From an uncultured virus (IMG/VR IMGVR_UViG_2061766007_000557) (Duplodnaviria; Heunggongvirae; Uroviricota; Caudoviricetes), in the IMG/VR virus record IMGVR_UViG_2061766007_000557: DNA of 64,000 bases, one strand, 5' to 3'. Of the stretch, positions 1 to 51,926 are shown one piece after another (position 1 is the stretch's first letter; each line of letters starts with the position of its first letter). The notes under the pieces are model-generated. The model made no database searches and was not told the DNA's origin. It was given only the letters and a program-made list of their open reading frames with translations. The position numbers and the translations under genes are program-made.

Positions 1-844
1 TTTTTGTACAAAAATTAGTATAATTATGAAAGAATATTGTAAAAAAAGATCTTGTAGTGAAGAAATTTGCCCAAATTGTGGTAAAACCTTTTTAAAGCCA
101 AATTCAGAACTATTAAGAAATGAAAAACTAGGAAGAAAAAGTTTTTGTTCTATTGCTTGTGCTACTTAGTATAGAGAAAATAATTGTCCTTTAACTGAAA
201 AACAAAAACAAATAAGAGAAAATTTTAAAAAGAACTGTACAGGATTAAAGGGAAATTTAAACCCTGGTCACAAAAGATGGAATGAATTCTCTCCTTTTAG
301 AGAAACATTTAGAAAAGCTAAAATGCATTCTAAACAATCAAATAGAGAGTTTTCTATAACACTTTAGGATCTTAAAGATTAGTGGGAAAAACAAAATGGA
401 TTGTGTGCATATACAAATGTACAACTAGTTTTACCATTATATAATGTTACACCATCTTTAACTGAACAAGCATCTTTAGATAGAATAGATTCATCTAAAG
501 GATATATTCCTGGAAATATTCAATATGTTTGTTCCTGTATTAACTTTTTAAAAAATAAACTTTCTGATTTAGAAGTAAAACGATTTCTTAAAAAAATTTC
601 TTCATTTACCTCAACTTTCGCAGAGGATTAGACTATCTCATCATCTCAAAATGAGATGTTGGACGCTCAAGCTGGTAATTAAGGAGACTTTACTCCTCCA
701 GTAGTCGTTGCACTTTATTTAGGTGTACCTAAATCTTAGCTCAGGATTGACATGCAAATGCTCAGTTCTGAGCTTTTTGTTTAGTGTTCCCTGAATTCAT
801 CCAATTTTTAACTATATGTCACCATATAGTGAGTCCGAATCTTA
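1..844 (-). mobile_element. Group I intron inserted in the tmRNA T-loop (3' end lies outside the window)
   Basis: Minus-strand core elements in the correct order: P UGAAUUCAGGGAA (787-799), Q AAUCCUGAGCUAAG (735-748), R GUGCAACGACUAC (701-713), S GAUGAGAUAGUC (631-642), P9-like hairpin (609-626). In P1 the exon GGGUU pairs with intron GACUC, with a U.G pair at the splice site. Confidence 0.85.
26..682 (+). CDS. Intron-borne HNH-like/Zn-finger homing endonuclease (TAG read as Gln), antisense to the intron
   Basis: ATG at 26 is in frame with the listed ORF 401-631. In-frame TAGs at 167, 365, 380 and 629; first TAA at 680-682. Motifs CPNCGK..FCSIAC, ITL*DLKD*WEKQNGLCAYT and SLDRIDSSKGYIPGNIQYVC..IN..K. 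Confidence 0.75.
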
Positions 845-1169
845 AACCCACGTGTTGATAAGTCTAAAATAAAAAATTATACATGCTTACATTTTATACG
901 AGTGCTTTACTCGAATGGAGTTTGTGAAACTACATTAGAAAACTAGGGACTATCTGGTGATAGTCACTCCACCAGTCCATTTAACGTTTGGACAAACACC
1001 AATAATTTATATGTGGAATCTTCTGTTCCTAGGTTTACCAACCCGAGCATTACGCAACCATTCTTAAATAAGAATCGCCTTTTATTTTTTGTAACGTGAT
1101 TTAAGAGGCAATTACATCCTCTGCATGTTCTTTAAATCAAATCATACCAGTCAATTCCAATCGAGCCCG
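845..1169 (-). ncRNA. ssrA: tmRNA, 5' exon
   Basis: 5' end CGGGCUCGAUUGGAAUUGAC resembles the tmRNA acceptor/D-loop. Tag frame after AUAAAA reads GDSYLRMVA-stop (1079-1050). Later AAGCAUGUA, then the T-arm start GUGGGUU, where the intron begins. Confidence 0.85.
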
Positions 1170-2834: not shown

Positions 2835-3032
2835 CTATAATTTAAATCCTTTTAATCGTTTTTGACCTAATTTAAAATTTCTATTATAATCAGACCAAGA
2901 TTTATAACAAGGATTAATCCATTTAGATACATACCAAATATTCCAATAAGTACTTAAAACATGATGAAATATATTCATTTTAAATACTTCTTGTCTATAT
3001 GGAGAATTTTTATATTGTTTAGCTTTTTTCAT
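2835..3032 (-). CDS. Small basic hypothetical protein
   Basis: 65 aa ORF between two tRNAs, ending at TAG. Confidence 0.45.
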   Translation of the reverse strand: MKKAKQYKNSPYRQEVFKMNIFHHVLSTYWNIWYVSKWINPCYKSWSDYNRNFKLGQKRLKGFKL

Positions 3033-3273: not shown

Positions 3274-3771
3274 TTAAACCAAAGGTTTAGCAACTTCTAA
3301 TAAATCTTTAAAGCAATTCATAAAATCTTCAGCCATTTCTTGTGTTGGAAAAGATAATGGATGTCTACCTTTACTCAAAGACCATATTTCGAAATCACAG
3401 CATTTACCACTTATACAATATTTAATAAGATATTCATTACTCCAATCAGGCTTCCAATCACCGATCCATGCTTGTCTCAGTGACATAAGTTGCGCCATAG
3501 CAACAAATGCTTCTGCAAGTTCTTTTGATGGCAGCGTAGTTTTCCATCGATTAGGAGTATTCATTAATGCCCATTTAACAGGATGTATACTACCGTTAGT
3601 CATAATATCATAGCCGAAGTGATTATTAATTTTCATCAATTCACAATACTCTACCCAACTTCTTGGTTTAGTATCTTTCTTTTTAAAGACTATCTTCTCT
3701 TGCTTAGCACTTTCTTGCCAGTCAATTTCATGATTTTCAGGAATTGTTATTTTTAATTCTTTTGCTGTCAT
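3274..3771 (-). CDS. Hypothetical phage protein
   Basis: Listed ORF 3274-3900; likely true start at MTAKELKITIP (approximate coordinate). Confidence 0.65.
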   Translation of the reverse strand: MTAKELKITIPENHEIDWQESAKQEKIVFKKKDTKPRSWVEYCELMKINNHFGYDIMTNGSIHPVKWALMNTPNRWKTTLPSKELAEAFVAMAQLMSLRQAWIGDWKPDWSNEYLIKYCISGKCCDFEIWSLSKGRHPLSFPTQEMAEDFMNCFKDLLEVAKPLV

Positions 3772-4019
3772 AATTCTTATTCTTCTTTTAAAAGTTTTGC
3801 TATTTCGAAACTTACATAAGACTAATGTGTGTTTATAATTAGTCCCAAAACACTTTGTTTTGTGAGTAACAAAATTGTAGCAATCACCACACGATGACAA
3901 AAATCGAAATGCATTACGTTGACCTCATATAAATGCAGTTAAACATCTATATAAGAATGCATTTCTTAACTATAAATTCACTTAATATCCTCTTCCTTAA
4001 CAATTTCAACGTTAAATTG

Positions 4020-10186: not shown

Positions 10187-11447
10187 AATAAAAAATTAAG
10201 CAGTTTTACATCATGCTTAGGATGTTTGTTAACCTTTAATCGCTTAAAGGATCGGCCTTGTTTCACAACATGTGTCTAATCTTTAAGGCTCTGGGCTTTC
10301 ATCTTACGACTTAGCTGCTTGGGTCTCTAAGAGACTTATACATTTGATTAGAAATAACAGTTTCAAGTCATGCCGGACGAGTTATGTACATAAATGAAGT
10401 CAATTATCACCGCTGACTTACGACGGTTATAATTTGTGCCAGTCTCGGAGTCTGTATCTGGCTTATGCTATTTTGTGTATTATGAAAAAAAACTTATCAG
10501 AATACTCCGCGTTTAAATTTATTGTATATTAGTTCTATCATAATAAAAGGCCATACTACCATAAGAATAAATAAGTCAAATGGATCTTCCTTTAAATCAC
10601 TATAGAACGTATACATTAGAACTATTAGTATTGTGAATACTATATAGAACATTGCAATGAATTGTAACATGTATTGGTTTTGTTTATTGATGGTTTAACA
10701 ATAAAGATTTTAGGAGAAATGAAATGAAGTGGGATTGTAGTGTAGAATAAGATATGATGTGATTTTTTGGTGATATGTCGTGTAAACGCCGTCGCTTTTT
10801 TGAAAAAAAGAGATGAGTTTAAACGGTATGATGTGAAGAGTGTGGGGTGAGAGTAATGTCCTCTCCCTCACACTCAACCCATCAAAAATGAAATCACCTT
10901 CATTTCTACTGCGAAATTAAAAAATCACACAAGGAGACTTTTTTCTTTCACAGAAATTTCTATGAAAGTGATTACATCCCCATCATTACACTTTCTATGC
11001 AATGAAATAACACGCTTTGCTACTGGCTTCTCGTCTGCGAGAATGCGTGATACCAGTTCATCAAATGGCATATTTTACAAAAGTTTTAATTCAAAACAAT
11101 CAATACTCATGCTCGCTTGCTATGAATATCGGGAATTATCCCTTTAACCTGTTTATAATCCGAATTTGAGAGTAGTTTTTGAGATAAGGACCTTTGATCA
11201 TCATCATATCGGTATTTTTATCAGGTGTTAAACAATCAAAATTACTTGGCTACAAGTAATAGTAACATAGCTGCAAACCAATGCAACTATGCTAATACGA
11301 AATCATTAGCGATTACCTGTTGATCTATTTCTAAAAAAATAGAAACATCTTCAGGTATCACTAAATACTTCGGTACAAGAGGTCTGAAATGAAAGTTGGT
11401 GCCCTCTTCATAGAAGACACCATCCTTCATTACACCTTTACGGCAGA

Positions 11448-12104
11448 TCATTTCGGCAGATCCTTTGTATAGATCTCGTCGATGATACCATTGGTATCTA
11501 CTGCCGGAACATTGTCTACTTCCTCGTACTTGTTCATAGTTACAGGAGTAAACTTAATGTAATCTTTACCGTCCTCGTTGTAGGTCTCCATGTCATAACC
11601 TTCCTTAACTTGTTTGAAGGATGCGTTATAACAAGCGTTACGACCTGTTACTTTGAAAGCAAATGGACGGGAGATATACGCCTTGTCACCTGCAGTAACA
11701 ATCGGAAGAGCACCATTGGCAAATACACTATATTGTGTAGTACCACGCTCTGCACGCATCAGACCTGCATCGTTTTTTACTGCACTTACTCTAAAGTTCG
11801 GGTTTTCTGCAATTACACCATAATGGCGTGCACGCAAACCGTTTACACTCAGAGTTACTGCTTGAATAGCCTGACCTTCAGCGTTAACACCGATTGCAAA
11901 TACACGGTTTGAGAATTCATTGCCGTTAACCGGTTGTGGGAGTTTTTCACTATGAACAAACTGAGGTACGATAACATACGTCAGATCGTTACGTAAACGC
12001 TGAGACTGCTGATTCAATGCAGCAATCTGTTTCTCATTTAAGGTTGAGATACCTTGCAACGCGTTCTTGTCGAACTCAATTCTGCAAAGAGATTTTCCTA
12101 CCAT
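11448..12104 (-). CDS. Hypothetical protein, paralog of 12234-12917
   Basis: Shares MVGKS, RLR.DLTYVI, SAVKN.AGL and FAFKVTGR with its neighbour; high-expression-like codon usage. Confidence 0.8.
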   Translation of the reverse strand: MVGKSLCRIEFDKNALQGISTLNEKQIAALNQQSQRLRNDLTYVIVPQFVHSEKLPQPVNGNEFSNRVFAIGVNAEGQAIQAVTLSVNGLRARHYGVIAENPNFRVSAVKNDAGLMRAERGTTQYSVFANGALPIVTAGDKAYISRPFAFKVTGRNACYNASFKQVKEGYDMETYNEDGKDYIKFTPVTMNKYEEVDNVPAVDTNGIIDEIYTKDLPK

Positions 12105-12191
12105 ATGAAAATTATATTAATTAATAAAAAAATATTTAAGGCTCACTAACTGCCTACCACATATTGGTAGTATTCTTGTTGATACGCTTTG

Positions 12192-12226
12192 AAAAAAAAG
12201 ACTCGCAGTCATAAAGACCACGAGTC
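12192..12226 (-). terminator. Intrinsic terminator
   Basis: GACTCG...CGAGTC stem followed by a U tract on the minus strand, just after the 12234 stop. Confidence 0.65.
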
Positions 12227-12233
12227 AATTTTG

Positions 12234-12917
12234 TTAGAGTCCTTCTTGCATAGAAGTGATGAGAGTACGAGTGTCATCTGGAATCTGATCCCAATTGATG
12301 TTAGGCACAACGTCTTGTTGCTCATAGCGATTCATTGAAGTGAATCCGAGATCCAGATAATCTGAACCATCAATAGTCTTAGTGAGCATATCCCACTTGA
12401 GACTATCACCACGACCAATAGACTTGAACTTACCGACGAGAACCTGATGACGTCCTGTCACTTTAAATGCAAAGTTCTCAGCAACGTAAGCTTTACCAGA
12501 TTCTTCACCAGTAAGTTTGAAGTTACCTTTGTCAAACACAGAGATCAATTCTGTACCACTAATAGCTCTATGAAGACCAGCTGCATTCTTAACAGCAGAT
12601 ATACGAATCTGCTCTGTAGCCTCTCCATAATAACTACTGCGTAATCCAGATACACCAAGAGTAAGAACTGATACACATTGTCCTTCATCATTGATACCAA
12701 CAACAAAGACTTTGCGAGAGGTGTCATAACCATTAAAGGCTTGTTTCAACTTCTCGTCGTGCACCCACTGTCTTGGAATAACATACGTGAGATCTTGTCT
12801 CAATCTCGTGCCGCCTTCGAACATAATAGAACGAAGTTGTGCTGCACTGAATGTTGATACTCCTGCGATTGCAGTTACGTCGTACTCGACTCTTGCTTGG
12901 ATTGATTTTCCTACCAT
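12234..12917 (-). CDS. Hypothetical protein, paralog of 11448-12104
   Basis: Likely start at MVGKS by alignment with the paralog. Confidence 0.8.
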   Translation of the reverse strand: MVGKSIQARVEYDVTAIAGVSTFSAAQLRSIMFEGGTRLRQDLTYVIPRQWVHDEKLKQAFNGYDTSRKVFVVGINDEGQCVSVLTLGVSGLRSSYYGEATEQIRISAVKNAAGLHRAISGTELISVFDKGNFKLTGEESGKAYVAENFAFKVTGRHQVLVGKFKSIGRGDSLKWDMLTKTIDGSDYLDLGFTSMNRYEQQDVVPNINWDQIPDDTRTLITSMQEGL

Positions 12918-13010
12918 AGCTGTAATAATTTTGATTGTTAATAATGTTAAAGTGTTAGCGTTCACCAGACTTTGATACCAACATGTTTATACTCCTGGTA
13001 CAAGAGGAGT

Positions 13011-13052
13011 GTAGTGATCCCACCTCAAACCAATGAGATGAGACCTGTTGAG
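13011..13052 (-). repeat. Conserved intergenic hairpin, copy A
   Basis: GGUCUCAUCUCA-UUGGUU-UGAGGUGGGAUC directly after the stop at 13054. Confidence 0.8.
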
Positions 13053-13053
13053 A

Positions 13054-13260
13054 TTATAAGGAATTATACAATGTTGTAATTAACTCCTTAATTTCCTCTT
13101 GTTGCTCTTCTTTCCACCACTTATACTCAAGCAATTCTTGAGCATGATCATCCCAATCTTCCAAAGAACTTGGTCTTAGTTTAGGGGCTCGTGTGGTGAT
13201 CAGCTCTTCATTAAGAGCAGTTAACTTCTGAAGAATTTCTCTTCTGTCTGTAGGACTCAT
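13054..13260 (-). CDS. Hypothetical protein
   Basis: 68 aa, preceded by AAAAGAAAGGA. Confidence 0.65.
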   Translation of the reverse strand: MSPTDRREILQKLTALNEELITTRAPKLRPSSLEDWDDHAQELLEYKWWKEEQQEEIKELITTLYNSL

Positions 13261-13294
13261 AATGTTTCCTTTCTTTTATGTTAAACAATAAGTT

Positions 13295-13335
13295 GTAGTG
13301 ATCAGCACCTAAACCAATAGATGCTGACCTGATAG
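13295..13335 (-). repeat. Conserved intergenic hairpin, copy B
   Basis: GGUCAGCAUCUA-UUGGUU-UAGGUGCUGAUC directly after the stop at 13336. Confidence 0.8.
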
Positions 13336-13644
13336 CTAGTCTGCGACATTGTATATCTTATACTCACCAGTAACTTCTGTATATAAGTACACAGGAGTTA
13401 TTTTATAAGGGTGATTCATATATTCTCTGGCTATTGATTTATGATATTCTATGTCATCAACACCAAATCCTTTAAGTCTCTCTTCTATTCCTTTGATCCA
13501 AGCTTCTATAATAGCTTGAATGGCTTCTAAGCACATTTCTTCTGTAGGATAGATTACAGATTCAATGTGTGTCTCTCTCCACCACTCATTCGAGTCTCCG
13601 TTATCGAAGATAATCTCAAGTTTGTAACCAATTAAAGTTTTCAT
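13336..13644 (-). CDS. Hypothetical protein
   Basis: 102 aa, preceded by AAAAGAAAGGAG, ends at TAG. Confidence 0.7.
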   Translation of the reverse strand: MKTLIGYKLEIIFDNGDSNEWWRETHIESVIYPTEEMCLEAIQAIIEAWIKGIEERLKGFGVDDIEYHKSIAREYMNHPYKITPVYLYTEVTGEYKIYNVAD

Positions 13645-13689
13645 GTTTTTGCTCCTTTCTTTTAAATGTTTATAATACTAATTAGAATT

Positions 13690-13729
13690 GATGAACATCA
13701 CCTAAGCCAATAGGTGATGCCCTGTTGAG
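13690..13729 (-). repeat. Conserved intergenic hairpin, copy C
   Basis: GGGCAUCACCUA-UUGGCU-UAGGUGAUGUUC directly after the stop at 13730. Confidence 0.8.
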
Positions 13730-14134
13730 TTAGATATTCATATCCATGTTGTCGTCATCAATACACTCGAAAACTGGTAATTGTAATTCAGGATGAGCAT
13801 CCAAATATCTAGCTCGCTTTATTACAGCCAACTGGCACGTGCCACAGAAGGACATAAAATCCGTACGCATTGCAAACGGTTCATATAACAATCCGCTCTG
13901 TTGAAAGTAAATTCTTGCTCCATCTGGATTATCGTCTTCAATGAAATACCAGTCTCTAAAGAACACTTGTTCTTCTGCAATTGCTTTTTGCAACCCTCTG
14001 ATTACATCTTCACTTACAATAGCAACTAATTGATCACGATAATACAACCAGACACATTCTGTGTCTTTCTGTGTAATTGAGCGAAGAAGCATTGTTGCCG
14101 CAATATGCTCTTTTGGAACACATAATTTGTACAT
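13730..14134 (-). CDS. Hypothetical protein
   Basis: Likely start MYKLCV at 14134, preceded by AAAAGAAAGGA. Confidence 0.7.
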   Translation of the reverse strand: MYKLCVPKEHIAATMLLRSITQKDTECVWLYYRDQLVAIVSEDVIRGLQKAIAEEQVFFRDWYFIEDDNPDGARIYFQQSGLLYEPFAMRTDFMSFCGTCQLAVIKRARYLDAHPELQLPVFECIDDDNMDMNI

Positions 14135-14250
14135 AATTTTCCTTTCTTTTAAAAGTTGATTACTTGTTATTCCAGTACTGCCAATCATGCTCGTACTGAT
14201 CTGGAGTATCTCTATAGAGATCTTCAGTTTCTTGTTGTTCTCGTGCCATA

Positions 14251-14814
14251 TTATTTTATTTGTATAAATTGTTCTTTGAGTTGTTCGTATTTTCTCTTAC
14301 TTTCTTGAAGTTTTGCAATCTCTGCTTTATCTTTTCGTCTCTCTGCTCTTAATCTTTCAATTTCAGAGCATAATCGAGCAATATCTGCTTTATATTCAGC
14401 TTTTAATTCAGATACTAAATGATCTAAATGACTTACCCAAAAGCCACCTGTCTTAATTATGCTTTCTAATTCATTTTCCGATTTATGAATAATTGGTTTT
14501 TCGGATTTACGCTGTACACTTTCTTTCTTAAGTGTAATAAACTTGGAGATTTCTTCTTGAAGATATTCTGAATCAAGATATTTAGAAGAATCGATCCTGT
14601 TCAATATCGCATCAGATAGAGAATAGCGTGTTTTAGACGCTGCTCCAATTTTCTGAAGAAAGTTTAAAGAACACATAGTTTTAATTACAGGCCCTACTGC
14701 TGTTTCAGGCACGCCCATAATATGAGCTAGTTCTGTTGCTTTAAGATTTTGAAGATTGTCTCTTTTCATTGTTACAAGAGCACATTCACAACGATTAATA
14801 AGTTTTGTTTTCAT
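14251..14814 (-). CDS. Possible winged-helix DNA-binding protein with C-terminal coiled coil
   Basis: KATELAHIMGVPETAVGPVIKTMCSLNFLQKIG..TRYSL resembles a wHTH; heptad-rich C-terminus. Confidence 0.55.
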   Translation of the reverse strand: MKTKLINRCECALVTMKRDNLQNLKATELAHIMGVPETAVGPVIKTMCSLNFLQKIGAASKTRYSLSDAILNRIDSSKYLDSEYLQEEISKFITLKKESVQRKSEKPIIHKSENELESIIKTGGFWVSHLDHLVSELKAEYKADIARLCSEIERLRAERRKDKAEIAKLQESKRKYEQLKEQFIQIK

Positions 14815-21093: not shown

Positions 21094-21187
21094 TGCCCAG
21101 TAGCATAATGGTCATTGCACCGGTCTCTAAAACCGTTATACTCTTCTGTTGGGGGTGATGTGGGTTCGAATCCCACCTGGGCTGCCA
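21094..21187 (+). tRNA. Amber suppressor tRNA (anticodon CTA) with long variable arm
   Basis: TGCCCAG/CTGGGCT-G-CCA, anticodon arm CGGT-CTCTAAA-ACCG, variable region of about 23 nt, GTGGG-TTCGAAT-CCCAC. Confidence 0.92.
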
Positions 21188-25194: not shown

Positions 25195-25479
25195 ATGTTT
25201 GGAATTAGTAATTGGCAACAAGTAAAGGATATTGCTGAAGGATGGACGAATTATGCTCTCGATAGAGAAAAAGATTTGTCTGAAAAAAGAATGAAAATTT
25301 GTATAGAATGTCCTTTATATAATAATGATAATGATCGATGTGATGCCAGTAGATGTATAAATATAAAAACTGGTGAAAAGGCAATGGGACCTGGCAAAGA
25401 TATAGTTTGCGGCTGTAATTGTTTTATGAAAAAAGCCAGTCGATCAATAAATAAAAAATGTGTATTGGGTAAATGGTAA
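25195..25479 (+). CDS. Small Cys-rich (Zn-binding) protein
   Basis: RMKICIECPL..C..CGC.C..K..C.LGKW. Confidence 0.7.
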   Translation: MFGISNWQQVKDIAEGWTNYALDREKDLSEKRMKICIECPLYNNDNDRCDASRCINIKTGEKAMGPGKDIVCGCNCFMKKASRSINKKCVLGKW

Positions 25480-26474
25480 AAGAAGAAATAAAAACTTTTA
25501 TAGGGTATATTTACAAAATAACAAATACTGCTAATGGAAAAGTTTATATAGGACAAACAAGAAGAACTGTATAGAAAAGATTTAAATAGCACTTAAGTTC
25601 TGCTTTTAGAGAATCAAGCAATTGTTATTTTACTCATTTATCTAAAGCTATTAGACAATACGGTACAGAGAATTTTATTGTAGAAGTAATAAAAGAAATA
25701 ACAGCAACAACTGTAGGAAAACTTTGTAAAGTTTTAGATGAAGAAGAGATTTTCTATATAGAGGAATATAATTCAACAAACCATAAACTTGGATATAATA
25801 ATTTAAAAGGAGGATAGTTAAACAGATCTTCTGAAGAAATTCTTAATTATAAGAATACATTGAATATTATACACGTTGGGTGCTGTGTTCCAGGATGTAA
25901 TGGAGTACATTTAGCAAACGGATATTGTCAGAAACACTATAACCAAATTTATTCACACGGACGTATTTTAGAAAGAACAGTTTTAGATAGAAACGAGTTT
26001 ATATTTTACGATAATTATGCAGAGATAATTTTATATAATAAAAACTGTCAAGAAATTGCAAGAACTAAAATAGATTTAGATGATGTTCCTAGAGTAAAAG
26101 AAATTAAATGGGGATATCATTCTGGAGTAAGAGGTAAAAGTGTTGTAGCACAAAAACCACATGTTGTTCTCCACAATTATCTTTTAAACCATACAGATAA
26201 GTCTACTGTAGTAATGCATAAAAACGGTGATAACTTAGATAACAGAAAAGCTAATCTGTTTGTAGTTACTCAGTAGGAAAAACAATAGAATAATAAAATT
26301 TCTAAAAATAACAAATCTGGTGTTTCTGGAGTTTGGTGGTGTAAAGAAAGAAATAAATGGCAAGCTTAGATAACAATAAATAACAAAACAAAATCTTTAG
26401 GCAGATTTAATACTTTGGAAAAAGCAATTGCTGCTAGAAAAACTGCAGAAAAAATATATTATAAAAAATTTTAA
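25473..26474 (+). CDS. GIY-YIG + HNH + AP2 homing-endonuclease-like fusion; code 15
   Basis: GYIYKITN..NGKVYIGQT; CCVPGC..GYCQKHY; VMHKNGDNLDNRKANL; NNKSGVSGV.W.KERNKW.A*I...LGRF...AIAARK.AE. Confidence 0.8.
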
Positions 26475-26480
26475 TGTAAC

Positions 26481-27932
26481 ATGAATTATGCTAATGTCAA
26501 ATTTGGCGATGAAGGTAGAGAAAAAATTATAAAAGGAGTAAACCTTATCGCAGATGCTGTTGAAAAAACATTTGGCCCTAATGGCAAGAATGTATGTATT
26601 AAATATCCAACAGGAGTAAAAATAACAAAAGATGGAGCAACTGTAGCCTCAGCTGTTAATGATTCGGACCCTTATGTTTCTATGGGTATAGAAATAATGA
26701 GAGATATTTCTGTAAAAACTGCACAGACTATTGGCGATGGCTCTACAACTAGTTTAGTACTTTCAAGAGCATTAGTTAATAAATATAAAGATGCTAAAAA
26801 TCCAATAGAATTGTCTAGGCAATTAAATGAAGATTGCCAAAGAGTGATTGATTGGTTAAAACAATATAAAAAAGAAGTCACAACTAAAGAAGATCTTCTT
26901 AAAGTTGCTACTTTATCTGCTAATAATGATCCTGTTCTTGGTGAATTAATAGCAGAAGCATTTAATAGAGTAGGGAAAGACGGATTAGTTCAATTTGTTG
27001 AATCTGAGGACGTGAATGATGTAGTCGAATATACGGAAGGATTTAGAATTGAATCTGGATTTTCTTCACCTTACTTTGTTAATACATTCAAAGGAACCTG
27101 TGAATTAGAAGATGTAATGATTTATATATCTGATACAAAAATGTCAGAAGTAAAGAAAGTACAAGAAATCGCAGGAAGAGCATTAGTAGCAAATAAATCT
27201 TTGTTACTAATTGCTCCAGACTTTGATTCTGAGATTATTATTTTCCTTTCTAGAAATTTATACGATAAAGAAGGAAATGATAAACTTAAATCATGTACTG
27301 TTAAAAGTCCAGATACTAGATCATATAGAGAAATGATCATGGAAGACATAAAAGTGTTACTTGGTGATGACCTACATTGTGATAAAGTGATTATTACACA
27401 AGATAATACAACATTTATTGGATATAACAGTAATAAAGACAAATTAGAATCTCGTGTTAAATCGATTAGAGAAACTATTAATGAATGTGCTCTGTCGGAA
27501 TATGAGATGGAATTTCATAAAAAAAGACTTGCAAATTTTACATCAGGAATTGCTACAATTCATGTTGGCGGTTATTCTCAAGTAGAAATTAAAGAAAAGA
27601 AAGATCGTGTTGAAGATGCTGTAATGGCAACACGTGCTGCTTTAAATAGTGGTATACTTCCAGGATCCGGTTCTATTTGGAGAGTACCTAAAGATATTGC
27701 TGGAGGTTTATATGATATATTACAAATCCCATTCAATCTTTTGAGTGAAGGAAAACCATTAAATGTAGACAATATATTCTGGAATGGATATAACTTCAAA
27801 ACTTGGAAATATGGTGATTTATATGAAATGGGTATTGTAGAACCATTTAGCGTAACTGAAAATTGTTTATTAAATGCTGTAAGTACAGCGAGTCTTATTT
27901 TAACTTGTGATTGTTTAATATTAAAAAATTGA
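26481..27932 (+). CDS. groL: Divergent phage chaperonin (GroEL/Cpn60)
   Basis: TFGPNGKNV, ITKDGATVA, GDGSTTS, EKKDRVEDAVMATRAA; 483 aa with no GGM tail. Confidence 0.92.
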   Translation: MNYANVKFGDEGREKIIKGVNLIADAVEKTFGPNGKNVCIKYPTGVKITKDGATVASAVNDSDPYVSMGIEIMRDISVKTAQTIGDGSTTSLVLSRALVNKYKDAKNPIELSRQLNEDCQRVIDWLKQYKKEVTTKEDLLKVATLSANNDPVLGELIAEAFNRVGKDGLVQFVESEDVNDVVEYTEGFRIESGFSSPYFVNTFKGTCELEDVMIYISDTKMSEVKKVQEIAGRALVANKSLLLIAPDFDSEIIIFLSRNLYDKEGNDKLKSCTVKSPDTRSYREMIMEDIKVLLGDDLHCDKVIITQDNTTFIGYNSNKDKLESRVKSIRETINECALSEYEMEFHKKRLANFTSGIATIHVGGYSQVEIKEKKDRVEDAVMATRAALNSGILPGSGSIWRVPKDIAGGLYDILQIPFNLLSEGKPLNVDNIFWNGYNFKTWKYGDLYEMGIVEPFSVTENCLLNAVSTASLILTCDCLILKN

Positions 27933-28924: not shown

Positions 28925-29503
28925 ATGATTAAATTTTTTGGTTACGATAACCAGTTAAACGAAATCACTATTAATCAACCCGAAATTCTTCTAGTAAAAG
29001 AATTTGCGGACCTGTGGACTAATGAAAGAAATAAGTGTAAAGAAGATCCTGACGGACATAAAAAACTAAGAGGATTTAAAGAATTAGTTTATATTTACAT
29101 GGCAATTGACTGGGGTGCTCCTGGAAGTAAGGATACTCCAGCCAATCGTCATATATATGCTATGGAAGCTTCTGGTTTAACAGAAGAAGAATATAACGAT
29201 CCTGTTTTTAGAGCTGCTTGTAGAAAATACAGAGAATTACAAGAAAAATCTTCTTTAATAGGTACGATGGTAGAAACGTATACAAATAAAATTCATCAAA
29301 TGAATGAGTTTATAAAAAGTATAGATTATAATGAACGTACAGATACTGGAATGCCTATATTTAAAACTAAGGATACATTAGACGAAATGGGTCGAATTGA
29401 TAAAGCATTAGAAGCTTTAAAAAATCTCGAAATGAAATATAAAGAAGAACAAGAAGAAGTTTCTGGTTTGAGAGGTGATAAGAAAAAAGGATTATTTGAC
29501 TGA
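28925..29503 (+). CDS. Helical protein upstream of TerL (possible terminase small subunit)
   Basis: Position and translational coupling to TerL; the function is inferred only. Confidence 0.5.
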   Translation: MIKFFGYDNQLNEITINQPEILLVKEFADLWTNERNKCKEDPDGHKKLRGFKELVYIYMAIDWGAPGSKDTPANRHIYAMEASGLTEEEYNDPVFRAACRKYRELQEKSSLIGTMVETYTNKIHQMNEFIKSIDYNERTDTGMPIFKTKDTLDEMGRIDKALEALKNLEMKYKEEQEEVSGLRGDKKKGLFD

Positions 29504-31794
29504 TGGAATCCGAAAAAAAGAAAACGTCTAAAAACGTTTATATATAGGAAACTTTGGAAGAGCGTATACAAAATGCTTCTAAACAAACTAGAGCAGTACG
29601 CGATTATCAAAGAAAGAAACCTACAAAAGAAGAAAAAAATAAAATGGAGTATGAAGAAATGCTCCATTATAATGACATAGAAAAATCTGAAAAAGAAGAA
29701 GTAATTGAAAAGCCAGAATGGGATGTGCCTATAGGAACAAAGATTGAATACTTTGATCCAGCGTTATCATACGAATTAACAGGGTATCGTCCCATTACTA
29801 CTACAGAAGGGTTAGATTTTAATCCTGAATTATTTACAGTACCAGCTAATACATATCGAAAAAATAAAAGATATACAAATTATGTTCCAGATACATTTAA
29901 ATGGATCAACCATTGGAAAGAGGAATTTAAGAAATGTTAGCAAGGTGTAACAATCGGTAGATATACACTGACTGGCCAAAATTATTTCTTCTTAAATTAT
30001 TATAGACTGTTAAGTCCTGTATCAGAAGAAGAAAGTTATACTGCGAGAGCAGAAGACTTTCCTGCTTTTATTGCAAAACAATATGAATACTTCCATTATC
30101 TAGATTTATGTAAAAAGGCCGGATTTGATGGATTGGCATTCAAAAGCAGAGGTGTTGGTGCTTCGGAAATTGCCGCAAGTAACTGTGCGCACGCATTTAC
30201 ATTCTTTAGATAGAGTATGAATATAGTAACAGCATTTGCATAGAATTATGTAGAAGATACTCTTGATAAAGTATGGCAAGAATTAGCATTCTTGGATACA
30301 AAAACAGAAGGTGCATTTAAACATTTAAAATAGGGAACTAATACTGCATTTGAAAAAGTAGCATCTGTAATTGATAAAGATGGTGTAGAACAAGGATTTA
30401 TGTCTACAGTAAAAGGTATTGTTGCAGATACTCCTGATAAACTTCGTGGTAAACGTACAGATAATCTGTATTTCGAAGAAAGTGGTAACAATAAATGCTT
30501 AATTGATACATACGCGAGAGGTGATGCTCTTGTTATTATTGGTGGTAGAAGGGTAGGTAACAGATTTGTATTCGGAACCTCTGGAGAGCAAGGTCCTAAA
30601 CTCGCTGGATTGAAAGCAATGTTCTATAATCCAAAAGGATATTCTATACTCCCATTCTATAACACTTCTACTGCTAATGGCGAACCTCAATTAACTGGAT
30701 ATTTTATTCCTTCTTATTAGATGTGGTTTGGCACAGATGATGGTTCTGTAAAAGGATATGATGATAGAGGAGTTGTAAATGAGGAAGCCGCCAAAGAAGA
30801 TTATCTAAAAAAATGGGCTGAAATAGAAGATCCTCATGCTCTTCTAATCAAAAAAGCAGAATATTGTTTTACTCCTGAAGACGCATTCGTACTTGAAGGA
30901 GAGAACATGTTTGATAAAGAAAAATTAGCTGATCAACTTGCTAATATAGAAATTCATAAAATAGTTGAAAAACCTAAAAATTATAAACTATATTGGCCTC
31001 AAAAAGAAGGACAACCTGATAGAACTCAGAAACCTCTTTTAAGAGAAGAACCAACAGGAAAAATATAGATAGTAGAACCTCCAATCTTTGATGAGCAAGG
31101 AAATTCTATGCGCAATTTATATGTTTCAGGCATCGATAGTATTGATGTGGATGATTCTACATCTACTGGACAAAATGATGTATCTGAATTTTGTATGGTT
31201 ATTTTACGAAGGCAATATGGTTTGAAGTCTCCTAAAATAGTTGCTATTTATAAAGATAGGCCGAAGAAAATTGAAGATGCATTTGATAATGCTTTAAAAC
31301 TTTGTAAATTCTATGGTTGTAAAACACTTGTCGAGGCTACTCGTATAAGTATTAAAAACTATTTTGAGAGAATGGGATATTTGTCTTATATGATGCATCG
31401 TCCGCAAGCGACAGCAAATAGTTCTTCTAAAACAAACTTTAGACAATACGGAGTTCCTGCTACACAAGCAATTATTGAGCATCAATTAGAATTAATTGAC
31501 ACATATATTGATAATTATTGTGATACAATCCAATTTCCTAATATGATTGACGAATTATTACGTTATTCATATGCAAATAAAAGAAAATTTGATATTGTAG
31601 CAGCAATGGGCGTTTGTTTATTAGCAGATGAAGAAATGATGCAGCTTAGGGCAAAAATACAAGAATAGAATCCTCCTAAAATGAAAGACGTTGGATATTA
31701 TAGAGATTAGTATGGACGTATTCAATATGGAGTTATATAGAAAGAAGAAATATCTACAATGAGATATGGATGGACTAGAGCAAAACGTTATTGA
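29503..31794 (+). CDS. terL: Terminase large subunit; code 15
   Basis: ORFs 29554, 30400, 30721 and 31108 are one frame split by TAG. Walker A KSRGVGASE, Walker B LYFEESG, nuclease motifs SGIDSID and KFDIVAAMG. Confidence 0.92.
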
Positions 31795-32032
31795 TCTTAT
31801 AGAGCAAGTATATAAATGTAAATTTATTGGTAATTTAAAAATAGAAAAACAAGAAAATCTTTATCAATTACGAATATTTTTGCATGATGAACATTTCATG
31901 GCATATACTTTAGCTAAACAGTGTGATTCAGATGACGAATTTTTAGAATTTGTAAAAAAAGAATTACAGGAAAATCGAATTATCAGGTCTAAACATTCGA
32001 AATTAATTATTTATCCTTATGAATATATATAA
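31766..32032 (+). CDS. Hypothetical protein
   Basis: 88 aa ORF between terL and portal. Confidence 0.65.
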   Translation: MDGLEQNVIDLIEQVYKCKFIGNLKIEKQENLYQLRIFLHDEHFMAYTLAKQCDSDDEFLEFVKKELQENRIIRSKHSKLIIYPYEYI

Positions 32033-34262
32033 GAGTATAAAAACTAAAAAAGGTTCAAACGATTATTTAATGGATGTTGCTGATTATATTATAGGTGACC
32101 TTGTGCATGAAAAAGAATATCTTTATAAAGCATATGATTACTATAATGGAATCAGAGATATTTACCAATACGAAAATCTTGAAAAGAATTTTGGAATTGG
32201 AAATCCAACATCAGTAGATTTTGTACCTTTAATTAGAAAACATATTGATGCAATTGTTGGAGAATATTTATCTACAAAAATTAGTCCAAAAATTTCATGT
32301 AAAGATGAAAAGACTCTGACTAATATAAATAGAGATAAATAGTTAGAAATAGCTCGTAAAACACATCAATATCTTAAACAATTTCTAGAGAATAGTATAT
32401 TAGATGCTATTGCTGGAAAACCTCAGCAAGAAGAAAAAATACTTGATCCTGTTATACAATAGGAACTAAAAGAAATTGAAGAGTCTGTTGGAAGAAATTT
32501 TATTTCTAATTATGAAATCGCTGGACAAAATATCGTAGAATATATCTTACAATCTAGAAAAATGGATTTTAAGAATAAACTGCAGCAAATGCTTCTTGAT
32601 TTATTAATAGCAGGACAGACTTATTATAAAGTAGTTGAATCTACTGGAGGCACTAATTTTAAAATTGAAGTTTATAGCCCATTAAATGTTTTTGTTGATA
32701 AAAATCCAAAAACAAAATATATGAAAGATGGTTATAAATCAGTAGTTCGAAAGTGGATGACTACGGAAGAGATTGTAATTACATATGGTAAAGACCTTAC
32801 GCAGAAAGATATCGATAGTCTTGAGGATTATGTAATTTATGATCGTAATAATGAACATTTCAGACTTATAACTGACAGATGTGCTCGTTGCGGCGAGCCA
32901 CCTACGAGAAATCCAGGAATGCTTCATGGAACTGGAATAGCATTTGATGATGAAACTGACGAATCTGCTTATTTTGGAGATTCTAGACAATGGAATCTTA
33001 TTCCGGTATATGAGGTAGAGTGGATAGACTATGAAAAGGAAGGAGATAAAATAAAAGGTAAAAAATATGAAGTTGTAAGAATTGGAACCGACATTTATAT
33101 ATTAAAAGGTGAAGATAAAAAAGCAATTAGAGATATCGATGCTCCAAATGAAGTAAAATTAAGTATAAATGGAATGTATTATACTAATCAAGGAGCTCCT
33201 TATTCTTTGATGCTTGCTACAACTTTCTTGCAAGATAAATTTGATCTTTTGTATTACTTTAAAGATAATATAATTGCTCTTTCTGGTACTAAAGGTGCTC
33301 ATGTTGATTTAGCACACTTACCTACAGTTCTTGGAGATACAATGGAAGAGAGACTCCAAAAGTATTAGGCTTATCGTAAAACAGGTTTATCTTTATATGA
33401 TTCTTCTCAAGAAGGAGAAATGGTCAATACTACATTTAATGGTTATGATGATAGTGTGAACGTTAATACTATCTAGGCAATTGATCTAGCTATCGAGAGG
33501 GTCGAGCAAACAGCAAGCTCAATCACCGGTGTGTTTAGAGAAAGGCTCGGTGGTATCGAAGCTAGAGATGCCGTTGCTAATGTAGAAATGGGTATGCAAC
33601 AATCGTATGTAATTACTAAACAATATTATCAAGCAATGGATACCCTTGTTTAGGAAATTCTTACAGACGCTTTGAATGTTGCAAAAAGAGTATATAAGAA
33701 AGGAATGACCGGGCAGTTAATTCTTGGAGATAAAAAAGAAATATTTACTCTTTTACCAGAATATTATTCGTTTACTGATTTTGATATTCATTTGGCCGAT
33801 AGCACAGAGATAATGAAAGAACAAGAATTCTTAAAACAATTATCAATGGAACTCACAAAGAACGGACAAGCAGATCCTACTTTGATTGTTATTATTTCTA
33901 CGGCAAAGAGTCTGACCGAAATGAAAGAAGGAGTTCTAAAAGCAATCAGTGAACGTAAATTAGAAAATAATCAATTGCAACAACTTCAGCAACAACTTCA
34001 ACAAACTCAAGAAAATCTTGATCAAGTTCAAAAACAACTTGAAGCTAGTACTAAGAAAATTACTCAACTTAATAGTAAGAAAATGGCTATAGATCAACAA
34101 GATAATGTAGCTAAACAAGAAATTGAGTGGTTTAAAGCTAAAAGTGATGATGAAAATAAGAAAGCAGAACTTGAGTTAGTTAAATAGAGAAATCAACTAG
34201 AAGCATTACAACTTGTTGATAACTCTAAAGATAATGATGAAGTTAAAAACGATAAATATTGA
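32019..34262 (+). CDS. Portal protein (crAss-type); code 15
   Basis: ORFs 32019, 32562 and 33672 share a frame, TGA at 34260. AYDYYNG, PLIRKHID.IVGE, ITGVFRERLG and a Gln-rich C-terminal coil; lies after terL. Confidence 0.85.
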
Positions 34263-51069: not shown

Positions 51070-51477
51070 ATGAAAGCAAGATTGGACTCAAGAAGTGCTT
51101 TTCCAGAAGCAATGGAAAACTATTTGGAATTTAATGGATGGCACTTTAGTAAGAAAATGTGCCAATGGGCTGTTTCTAAGATGTATAGAGAGGTAAATGG
51201 AAAGAAAGAAGCAATTGAGCCTTATACAATGGAATCATTAAAAGTATTAAAAGATAAATCAGGAATGGATTTTGAATTATCTTATGATGCTGTTTATATT
51301 GCTAATATGTGTAAAGCAGACTTCTTGGGTTCATCTATTCCTAATGAAACACTATTGGCTAGATATGTAAAAGACGTTATAGAAGATCCAGATGGATATG
51401 ATGGAATGCCTTTTACAAGATTTTATGCGGATTGTATTGGTTCTGGCACAAGCATTCCTTGGGACGATTTGTTATGA
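51070..51477 (+). CDS. Conserved hypothetical protein
   Basis: YL.FNGWHFSKKMC.WAVS.M..YDAVYIANM.KADF..DPDGY. Confidence 0.75.
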   Translation: MKARLDSRSAFPEAMENYLEFNGWHFSKKMCQWAVSKMYREVNGKKEAIEPYTMESLKVLKDKSGMDFELSYDAVYIANMCKADFLGSSIPNETLLARYVKDVIEDPDGYDGMPFTRFYADCIGSGTSIPWDDLL

Positions 51478-51926
51478 AAACACAAATTGTCTATTTAGAT
51501 GAATACGATTGGTTAATAAAAGTATTCTACCTAGTAGAAGATCCTTTTATAGAGGGGATATTAGGGGAATTAGACTCTATAGATTGTGAGCCAGAAATTT
51601 TCTATAGGGCAGCAGAAATGCTGGAGAATGATGAATTAAATTCAGGATTTACTTATACTGATGAAGAAAAACATATTACTTTTATGGTAATAACTAAAAC
51701 TACATCAGCAGAAGAATTCTTTAATACATTTATTCATGAAATTGGACATGCTGCAACACATATTGCTGAGTATATAGGAATAGATCCTTATTCAGAAGAA
51801 CTTCAATATTTATAGGGAGAAATTGCTTTATAGATGTTTCAAGAAGCTAAAGAATTTATGTGTGATCATTGTCGAATGAACTTTTATAACTATGGTAAAA
51901 TGAAGATAAAAATAAAGGAGGGCTAA
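51474..51926 (+). CDS. Zn-metallopeptidase-like protein; code 15
   Basis: FIHEIGHAATHI (HExxH) followed by SEEL.YL*G. Confidence 0.7.

Follow-up and report, generated by a model that had tools for sequence, protein, structure and literature searches.

What is the hairpin that follows one small gene after another in the early arm of the uncultured virus IMGVR_UViG_2061766007_000557, and what might read it? The DNA analysed is a stretch of 64,000 nucleotides (nt), here called the window, and all coordinates are those of the whole stretch. An earlier note on this DNA described three minus-strand units, each an open reading frame (ORF) followed by a 12-bp stem that carries a UUGGYU loop. These three units are present, and the family is larger, since five minus-strand copies are found in the window:

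Hairpin A, 13722-13693, minus strand: 12-bp stem with two G.U pairs, loop UUGGCU, tail AUCA, which deviates from the family tail WCUA; 7 nt past the TAA of ORF1
Hairpin B, 13329-13300, minus strand: 12-bp stem, loop UUGGUU, tail ACUA; 6 nt past the TAG of ORF2
Hairpin C, 13045-13016, minus strand: 12-bp stem with three G.U pairs, loop UUGGUU, tail ACUA; 8 nt past the TAA of ORF3
Hairpin D, 11294-11263, minus strand: 13-bp stem (12 in the family register), loop UUGGUU, tail ACUA; overlaps the TAG stop of the ORF at 11287-11451 (54 aa) and lies outside the region that the earlier note covered
Hairpin E, 6401-6372, minus strand: AT-rich 12-bp stem, loop variant UUGAUU, tail UCUA; like hairpin D, outside the region of the earlier note

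The element is a strand-specific, selected fold of RNA type with fixed geometry and a conserved loop and tail. It occupies gene ends in the early region, belongs to one clade of phages, and is a point at which these phages exchange genes.

Chance is excluded as the origin of the window hairpins. The sequence TTGGYT occurs at 69 sites on the two strands, and a stem of 12-13 bp surrounds four of them, while at the other 65 the stem reaches at most 6 bp. With G.U allowed, the pairing chance per position is ~0.39, which gives 1.2e-5 for 12 pairs and fewer than 0.001 expected cases over the 69 sites; in 200 block shuffles, stems of at least 8 bp had a mean count of 0.02. The stems of hairpins A-C are uninterrupted, both by reading of the sequence and in a loop-anchored scan. 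Hairpin E has the form found in ~170-kb relatives of this phage (covariance-model score 18 bits, E 0.72; also seen in a listing of hexaloop hairpins). Folded as minus-strand RNA, the window hairpins reach -17.8 to -18.6 kcal/mol (z -3.0 to -5.9), compared with -5.9 to -14.8 kcal/mol for the plus strand under RNA parameters. The plus-strand fold is weaker because two to three G.U pairs turn into A.C, and the earlier argument that the wobble pairs point to the minus-strand RNA therefore holds.

In the four UUGGYU copies of the window, 48 of 48 cells are paired and compensatory changes occur at 10 of the 12 pairs. A covariance model of these copies matched those four alone in the window at E <1e-10, the next match scoring 19.5 bits. 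When the whole window was compared with Rfam 15 at gathering thresholds, the hairpins were unmatched and only a group I intron and tRNAs were returned. A permissive Rfam search of 10900-14300 gave five matches, all at 17.8-23.6 bits against gathering scores of 45-100. The motif thus corresponds to no Rfam family in either search; the earlier note had not recognised it as a named motif either.

Which kind of phage carries these hairpins? Leftward genes begin at ~15.5 kb and rightward genes at 15.9 kb. Unless TAG is read as an amino acid, the structural genes of the rightward arm are not open and the ORFs of 764-1847 aa do not appear. This TAG-dependent region (17357-61365, plus strand) includes the terminase (29503-31794), a portal-like gene (32019-34262) and ORFs of 1845 and 1472 aa, and a tRNA gene with anticodon CUA (21094-21187, plus strand) stands at the start of the rightward arm. 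The early minus-strand genes keep TAG as a stop, and two of the four stops that precede UUGGYU hairpins are TAG. The large terminase, translated with TAG as glutamine (Q), matched 170 phage records that are dominated by crAss-like and other Bacteroidota phages at ~27-28% identity; its best matches are two unannotated gut phage records at 41-44%. The sequencing runs that contain the stretch are cattle-gut metagenomes. Gene layout, recoding and terminase kinship therefore identify a TAG-recoded, distant crAss-like phage whose early arm carries the hairpins in its first kilobases.

Relatives of this phage carry further copies. The complete 172-kb relative G002, which was reached via its GroEL-like protein, has only the late and middle region in common with the window, at ~70% DNA identity. 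A model built from the four window copies with 10-nt flanks (R1) missed the copies in relatives. A loop-anchored scan of G002 turned up three such hairpins: each has exactly 12 bp and a UUGGUU loop and lies on the corresponding strand and arm, and the stem sequences are entirely unlike those of the window. A rebuilt model (R2) was applied to 18 related records taken from the terminase alignment, and had matches in three of them: three in G002 and four each in G005 and G018, one being weak in each of the latter. R2 had no match in 13 fragments or in the near-complete, more distant G013 and G015, and a direct listing of the hairpins of G013 and G015 showed no such family, only U-tailed terminators. 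The hairpin family is restricted to one clade.

Pattern scans were less specific. Among metagenome contigs, 115 loci were returned, and six contain true members (L206, L221, which is 168 kb long, L249, L250, L257 and duplicates); several of the one-mismatch hits were probably forced by the search pattern itself. A first scan of viral records gave 115 loci, nearly all chance, and a second gave nine, with hairpins at the G005 locus only. The region 12900-14300 had no DNA similarity to any of 50,697 phage records, and a 227-aa early protein encoded nearby had no relative among the viral contigs searched. Building a model and scanning for more copies, as the earlier note had suggested, thus added two in the window and others in relatives and metagenome contigs (G002, G005, G018, L206, L221 and L250).

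Conserved features are apparent in an alignment of 29 ungapped copies from the window, three ~170-kb relatives and three metagenome contigs. In this set 99.1% of the 348 cells are paired, with double changes at all 12 pairs, as against 39-49% paired in a control whose partner columns were slid by 1-3. The earlier observation that stems differ while pairing is kept therefore reflects real covariation, in the four window copies and in the wider set. The scans did not impose stem length, strand, loop and tail counts, or the G.U at pair 2. Every copy has a stem of 12 bp, which a 13th pair could extend in a few cases, and all clean copies are on the early-sense strand. The hexaloop consensus is UUGRYU (U in 29, U in 29, G in 27, G in 24 with A in 5, U in 27 and U in 28 of the 29 copies), and the tail is WCUA (W in 28, C in 27, U in 24, A in 24). 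The second pair is G.U in 19 of 29 copies, the first stem base is G in 20, the base preceding the stem is U in 13, and the loop is closed by A-U in 22. Listing all hairpins with 6-nt loops revealed the variants UUGAUU, UUGAGU, UUGAUC and UUAGUU, and two further copies have a one-base bulge. Orthologous hairpins of close relatives also differ in their stems and keep their pairing (hairpin D versus L206; G018 39796 versus L221 9257). A CRISPR repeat or a solitary repeat decoy was rejected as an explanation, as it would need a near-identical repeat, yet the stems differ at all 12 pairs.

Two other hairpins resemble the family. L006, a 55-kb provirus of 47% G+C, has one non-coding 12-bp UUGGUU hairpin (3003-3032, plus strand; tail ACGA; 39.9 bits with R1). 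If it is kin to the family, the reader could be a host factor, and it may also be a chance find among pattern hits. In the window, a 14-bp hairpin with loop UUAACU (3956-3923, minus strand) lies upstream of a 208-aa ORF (3274-3900) and could be a distant family member or unrelated.

The position of the hairpins relative to genes is informative. Seven of 17 copies examined start 6-13 nt past the stop of the upstream ORF and four overlap the stop; all three L250 copies and two L206 copies likewise follow stops. Three copies are situated 34-64 nt past the 3' end of a tRNA, and one is 9 nt before a tRNA. The distance from hairpin to next start is looser, at 3-192 nt. Within the early arm all copies are confined to the promoter-proximal 9-28 kb, and the replication-gene block has none. 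The hairpin therefore marks the ends of protein and tRNA genes alike in the early region, and is not a translation signal. Since copies also follow tRNA genes and sit in non-coding stretches, "gene-end mark" is a better label than "cassette handle".

A mark at gene ends raises the question of termination. Over the 29 copies, the first ten positions after the stem (+1 to +10) contain a mean of 4.4 T, hairpins A-C have 2-4 T, and a consensus terminator scan flagged hairpin D alone among the family. The conserved WCUA tail is found instead of a U tract, and the earlier statement that these are not intrinsic terminators stands. A usual stop signal is present in the same early arm:

Ordinary intrinsic terminator, 12226-12200, minus strand: 11-bp GC-rich stem, then eight T

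The hairpin family therefore differs from the kind of stop signal that this arm also uses.

Three hairpins of the window close small cassettes, whose components are these:

Leader of ORF1, 14135-14150, minus strand: contains AAAAGAAAGGA
Cassette ORF1, 13730-14134, minus strand: 134 aa; without family match or homologue in the relatives examined
Linker from hairpin A to the ORF2 ATG, 13645-13692, minus strand: AAAAGAAAGGA at 13653-13663; kept in L250 and L206 before unrelated ORFs
Cassette ORF2, 13336-13644, minus strand: 102 aa, ORFan; apparently absent from a relative in sequencing run X6
Linker from hairpin B to the ORF3 ATG, 13261-13299, minus strand: AAAAGAAAGGA at 13267-13277
Cassette ORF3, 13054-13260, minus strand: 68 aa, ORFan; in run X6 a B-type hairpin follows it, not hairpin C

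The same order is seen three times: AAAAGAAAGGA, a few bases, ATG, the ORF, its stop, a leader of 6-8 nt (CUCAACA or CUAUCA) and the hairpin. The exact 10-mer AAAGAAAGGA occurs on the minus strand at these three places only. ORF1-ORF3 are mutually unrelated (blastp E > 1) and none matches a Pfam or PHROG family. Five linkers that precede unrelated ORFs have a mean column identity of 73% from the leader through the first codons. In the linkers that follow hairpins A and B (39-48 nt), a consensus scan for promoters of sigma-70 type found no -35/-10 pair.

Adjacent to this array, a second small hairpin follows just past hairpin C (~13010-12985, minus strand), in which CUCCU pairs with AGGAG, and UAUAAACAUG comes next. 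From its sequence it looks like a sequestered Shine-Dalgarno (SD) element before a tiny ORF upstream of the 227/243-aa gene. The hairpin is conserved in L250 (~1075-1100) and L206 (~855-875), and the short peptide is not. Two early genes further downstream, at 12234-12965 and 11448-12104 (minus strand), are paralogous at ~44% amino acid identity (judged by their cross-hits in L206) and have no family match; the terminator at 12226-12200 stands between them.

Does cassette content change among relatives, as would be expected if the hairpins took part in exchange? The 1.5-kb contig L250 has three hairpin-linker units around ORFs unrelated to those of the window. One of its hairpins (659-688) is identical over 30 nt to hairpin B while the flanking ORFs differ, blastn matches between L250 and the window occur in the hairpin-linker stretches only, and the L250 ORFs match only themselves. 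L206 retains the 227-, 218- and 54-aa genes of 11287-12917 at 96, 94 and 87% identity; upstream of them, in place of the window's three cassettes, it has a single other cassette with other hairpins. In contigs of run X6, joins or breaks fall at 11298, 13010/13014, 13042/13325, 13295 and 13692, each inside a hairpin or within ~6 nt of its edge. In this run window positions 11299-12914 are replaced, the left break being 4 nt from hairpin D; hairpin C is followed by 24 other letters and then by the region of a 187-aa gene that is 1.8 kb upstream in the window; and ORF3 is joined to a B-type hairpin through six shared letters. Hairpin A here runs directly into the sequence that in the window comes after hairpin B, and ORF2 is therefore apparently missing in that relative. 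G005 has another gene order, in which the homologue of the 187-aa gene comes after an A-like hairpin. When G018 is compared with L221, homology stops 4 nt past one hairpin (39829) and 11 nt before another (35847), and a 306-nt insert that carries a hairpin follows tRNA-Glu.

A hairpin-plus-linker of ~30-100 nt thus recurs between unrelated genes, and therefore forms a patch of homology where related phages exchange, lose and gain cassettes. The earlier note had proposed that the hairpins might be recombination handles for shuffling cassettes. The part of this idea that stands is that cassette content between hairpins differs among close relatives and that breakpoints fall at hairpins (X6, L250, L206 and G018/L221). 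The element is not tied to the cassette array, and to this extent the idea needed revision.

What, then, is the primary role of the hairpin? Our preferred reading, to which we give an even chance, is that the hairpin and its WCUA tail are a strand-specific RNA signal for the 3' boundary of early units, recognized by a dedicated reader, with the RNA ended or cut at the foot of the stem. The carriers would be a clade of TAG-recoded, crAss-related, ~170-kb cattle-gut phages, and the units their small ORFan genes and tRNA genes. A dedicated factor would read the exact 12-bp length, the hexaloop UUGRYU, the WCUA tail and the G.U that is common at pair 2, and would make the early RNA end, or be cut, at the stem foot. 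The hairpin that remains at the 3' end could shield the upstream message from 3' exonucleases, and the conserved linker would also serve as the crossover point for cassette exchange.

Several observations weigh against a boundary signal of this kind or soften the data behind it. No RNA ends were observed: contigs of the sole RNA run (X15) span 10770-12089, none over hairpins, and contigs cannot reveal RNA ends. We found no candidate reader, as none of the seven proteins scanned out of nine clade-specific ones is RNA-related (the scans gave only Clp protease and a weak YebF match), and a Pfam search of 47 early and middle proteins of G005 found replication and nucleotide enzymes and none of an RNase or RNA-binding family. 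For some copies, situated in non-coding stretches (G002 105778 and 106091), there is no clear upstream gene. The covariation figures are inflated by ascertainment, since the scans and models that found the copies demanded pairing. As for exchange, breakpoints are in part to be expected at any conserved island with diverging flanks, the X6 contigs may stem from more than one strain, and the link between G018 and L221 is modest, with an estimated ~3 of 12 hairpin edges near the end of a high-scoring segment pair.

Other explanations place the reader elsewhere, and the most interesting is that the hairpin is a signal for the phage's virion RNA polymerase, as an RNA terminator or attenuator or as part of a start signal in early transcription. 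We consider this unlikely, but less so than the alternatives that follow. The phage is crAss-related, as judged from the 170 terminase matches dominated by Crassvirales and Bacteroidota phages, and a giant late-strand ORF of G005, a candidate polymerase without PHROG match, ends in a DFD-containing motif. In the crAss-like phage phi14:2 the virion polymerase transcribes the early genes and prefers single-stranded DNA, and a motif common to the sequences upstream of these genes was not found (bioRxiv 10.1101/2020.03.07.982082). Confinement of the hairpins to the first 9-28 kb of the early arm, their absence from the replication module, and their clade specificity are as expected of a phage-encoded reader. 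However, the fold favours the sense strand, whereas a template-strand DNA hairpin of N4 type would hold A.C mismatches; the hairpins keep a close distance to the stop before them and a variable one to the start after them; and full termination at every hairpin would silence promoterless cassettes downstream. That the hairpin could more narrowly be the cis-signal where an injected virion polymerase of crAss type stops or hands over in this clade is a doubtful proposition, slightly more so than the general one. The remaining alternatives rank lower. One is a docking site for a regulatory or antitermination protein, in the manner of boxB and N at lambda nut, that would permit read-through of terminators such as 12226-12200. 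This strong U-tailed terminator follows hairpins A-C in the arm and precedes hairpin D and the tRNA genes, and the conserved loop, free stem sequence, RNA sense and early-operon location are all in keeping with such a site. We nonetheless regard it as improbable, given that a genome carries 3 to 7 copies instead of one or two close to the promoter, that these track gene ends, including those of tRNAs, that no clade-wide boxA-like linear element or conserved word is present (positions -8 to -1), and that the stem has 12 bp, compared with 5 bp in boxB.

The length of the stem also equals that of an acceptor stem plus a T stem (7 + 5), and the hairpin might by analogy be a tRNA-minihelix mimic that is cut by RNase P or RNase Z, as are plant mitochondrial t-elements, with WCUA resembling discriminator plus CCA. 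The frequent G at the first stem base (20 of 29), the U before the stem (13 of 29), a tail N-C-U-A one letter off N-C-C-A, and the interspersion of copies with tRNA genes are compatible with this. The loop is of 6 nt, not the 7 of a T loop, it is closed by A-U in 22 of 29 copies and not by G-C, and the trailers of the phage's own tRNA genes have no WCUA; we judge such mimicry to be as improbable as an antitermination site. The exchange data could instead suggest a DNA site for a dedicated recombinase, folded as a single strand like an integron attC, by which cassettes move site-specifically. An array of ORFan cassettes without promoters, each closed by a strand-specific imperfect palindrome that varies in sequence and keeps its structure, and junctions inside or at hairpins recall such a system. 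It is nevertheless very unlikely: no integrase or recombinase family was found among 33 window ORFs (PHROGs), 20 (Pfam) or the 47 G005 early and middle proteins, small ORFs and the remainder of the genome being outside these scans; the site measures 30 nt, compared with the 57-141 nt of attC; copies occur after tRNA genes and in non-coding DNA as well; the stems are old and diverged, not freshly copied; and the sole resolved junction falls in six shared letters, as homologous exchange predicts. Finally, the hairpins could be ordinary factor-independent terminators or generic 3' stabilisers whose loop was kept by descent alone. Their gene-end position agrees with this, as do T-rich runs that start 4-6 nt past the stem in several of the copies from relatives. 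The T content after the stem, given above for the family and for hairpins A-C, is at odds with it, as is the coexistence of canonical U-tailed terminators in the arm, and descent alone fails to explain a loop and tail that persist while all stem positions turned over; this reading, too, has very little probability. A pseudoknot between loop and 3' flank, a stimulator of stop-codon read-through and Mini-III ACCU sites were each inconsistent across copies and were discarded.

Some proteins of the relatives deserve mention beside these readings. A Ro60-vWA-like protein was considered as a reader and rejected, as it is encoded by G005 and G018 and missing from G002, and so does not track the hairpins. 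It has 563 aa, a TROVE-like N-terminus and a vWA match (Pfam E 4e-5, below the curated cut-off), and its gene is at L164 15243-16931 (plus strand; G005 155243-156931) and at G018 78820-80373. A comparison of seven giant late proteins with PHROGs named no polymerase. The 1850-aa late-strand ORF of G005 (L159 5804-11353, minus strand) stops right after the DFD-containing motif, which we take to be of the kind that marks crAss virion RNA polymerases, and the gene may be split at this motif by an intron or other insert.

Mobile or unusual elements are also present in these genomes. The group I intron is at window positions 609-855 (minus strand; Rfam RF00028, 85 bits), and its stretch is 83% identical over 277 nt to the crAss-like phage cr128_1, where it is annotated as endonuclease or hypothetical protein. 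At 25473-26471 (plus strand), readable with TAG as Q, is a gene for a protein of homing-endonuclease type with GIY-YIG, HNH and AP2 domains, directly upstream of a GroEL-like gene (26481-27932). The terminase of G002 (L126 5960-9475, minus strand) has an insertion of ~400 residues, absent from the window terminase, that starts with Cys and ends with His-Asn followed by Cys, and which by these sequence features looks like an intein. ARAGORN predicts a gene resembling transfer-messenger RNA, with a tag peptide, in the early arm of G018 (L168 11162-11536, plus strand; G018 51162-51536).

How does the element compare with systems already described? The closest is the PeSL cassette of T4-type phages, with which it has architecture and evolutionary role in common. 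There, a unit of conserved stem-loop (promoter-early stem-loop), promoter and SD sequence flanks ORFans and mediates modular shuffling, with stems described as often polyG/polyC (Arbiol et al. 2010, PMC2839356; Comeau et al. 2014, PMC4122927), and in RB49 a crossover was mapped within the loop (PMC2839356). Both are conserved intergenic stem-loop units that end in SD and start codon and flank ORFans in a plastic early region, and both are points of homologous exchange between otherwise unrelated sequences, the breakpoints of relatives falling within the unit here too. Unlike what is described for PeSL, the linkers here contain no recognized sigma-70-like promoter and no terminator tail; the stem is fixed at 12 bp, free in sequence, and accompanied by a conserved hexaloop and the WCUA tail; and the lineage is crAss-related rather than T4-like, with copies also past tRNA genes.

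Other known elements share individual features. RNase III processing hairpins, such as T7 R1.1 and others and those of Bacillus phage SP82, are helices of about two turns with internal loops. They too are repeated between early cistrons, where their cleavage divides a polycistronic RNA into stable units that end in a hairpin. The present element has a perfect 12-bp stem, a sequence-conserved loop and a single-stranded tail motif. Integron attC sites are 57-141 nt long, have paired core sites and are served by an adjacent tyrosine-recombinase integrase. Arrays of promoterless cassettes and a strand-specific folded element conserved in structure rather than sequence are common to both systems, but the element here consists of 30 nt plus a 4-nt tail, is not limited to cassette ends, and has no integrase among the scanned proteins; no inverse core pair was found at the hairpin flank positions of the 29 copies. 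Lambda boxB, with a 5-bp stem and a pentaloop, occurs as one site per operon arm with a linked boxA. It is likewise an RNA hairpin of an early operon with conserved loop and variable stem, read in its case by the phage protein N, and differs from the 12-bp, hexaloop element that is found in several copies at gene ends.

Phage N4 injects its own RNA polymerase, whose promoters are hairpins of the template DNA strand with 5-7-bp stems and 3-nt loops. These are comparable as small hairpin signals of an early region, but the fold here favours the sense strand (~-18 versus -5.9 to -14.8 kcal/mol, RNA parameters). Plant mitochondrial t-elements are tRNA-like mimics of acceptor and T arm at mRNA ends that borrow the tRNA-processing enzymes, and have a 12-bp helix. 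They resemble the present element in this length, and differ in that its loop and closing pair are not T-loop-like and its tail is CUA, not CCA. A full-text literature search for the loop sequence gave nothing relevant among the matches listed.

crAss-like phages are among the most abundant gut viruses. For the crAss-related clade studied here, the sharply defined, covarying element provides a concrete RNA or DNA substrate on which virion polymerase, host RNases and early proteins can be tried, and the 29-copy alignment could seed a new RNA family. If the virion-polymerase reading is true, this would be the first defined nucleic-acid signal for that class of polymerase, for which phi14:2 yielded neither a promoter nor a terminator motif in early transcription, and early genes, each unit of which keeps the signal, would therefore be swappable as plug-in cassettes. 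Exchange of ORFan cassettes at conserved regulatory linkers, as with PeSL, also works in a lineage unrelated to T4, which bears on how phages renew their sets of host-takeover and counter-defence genes.

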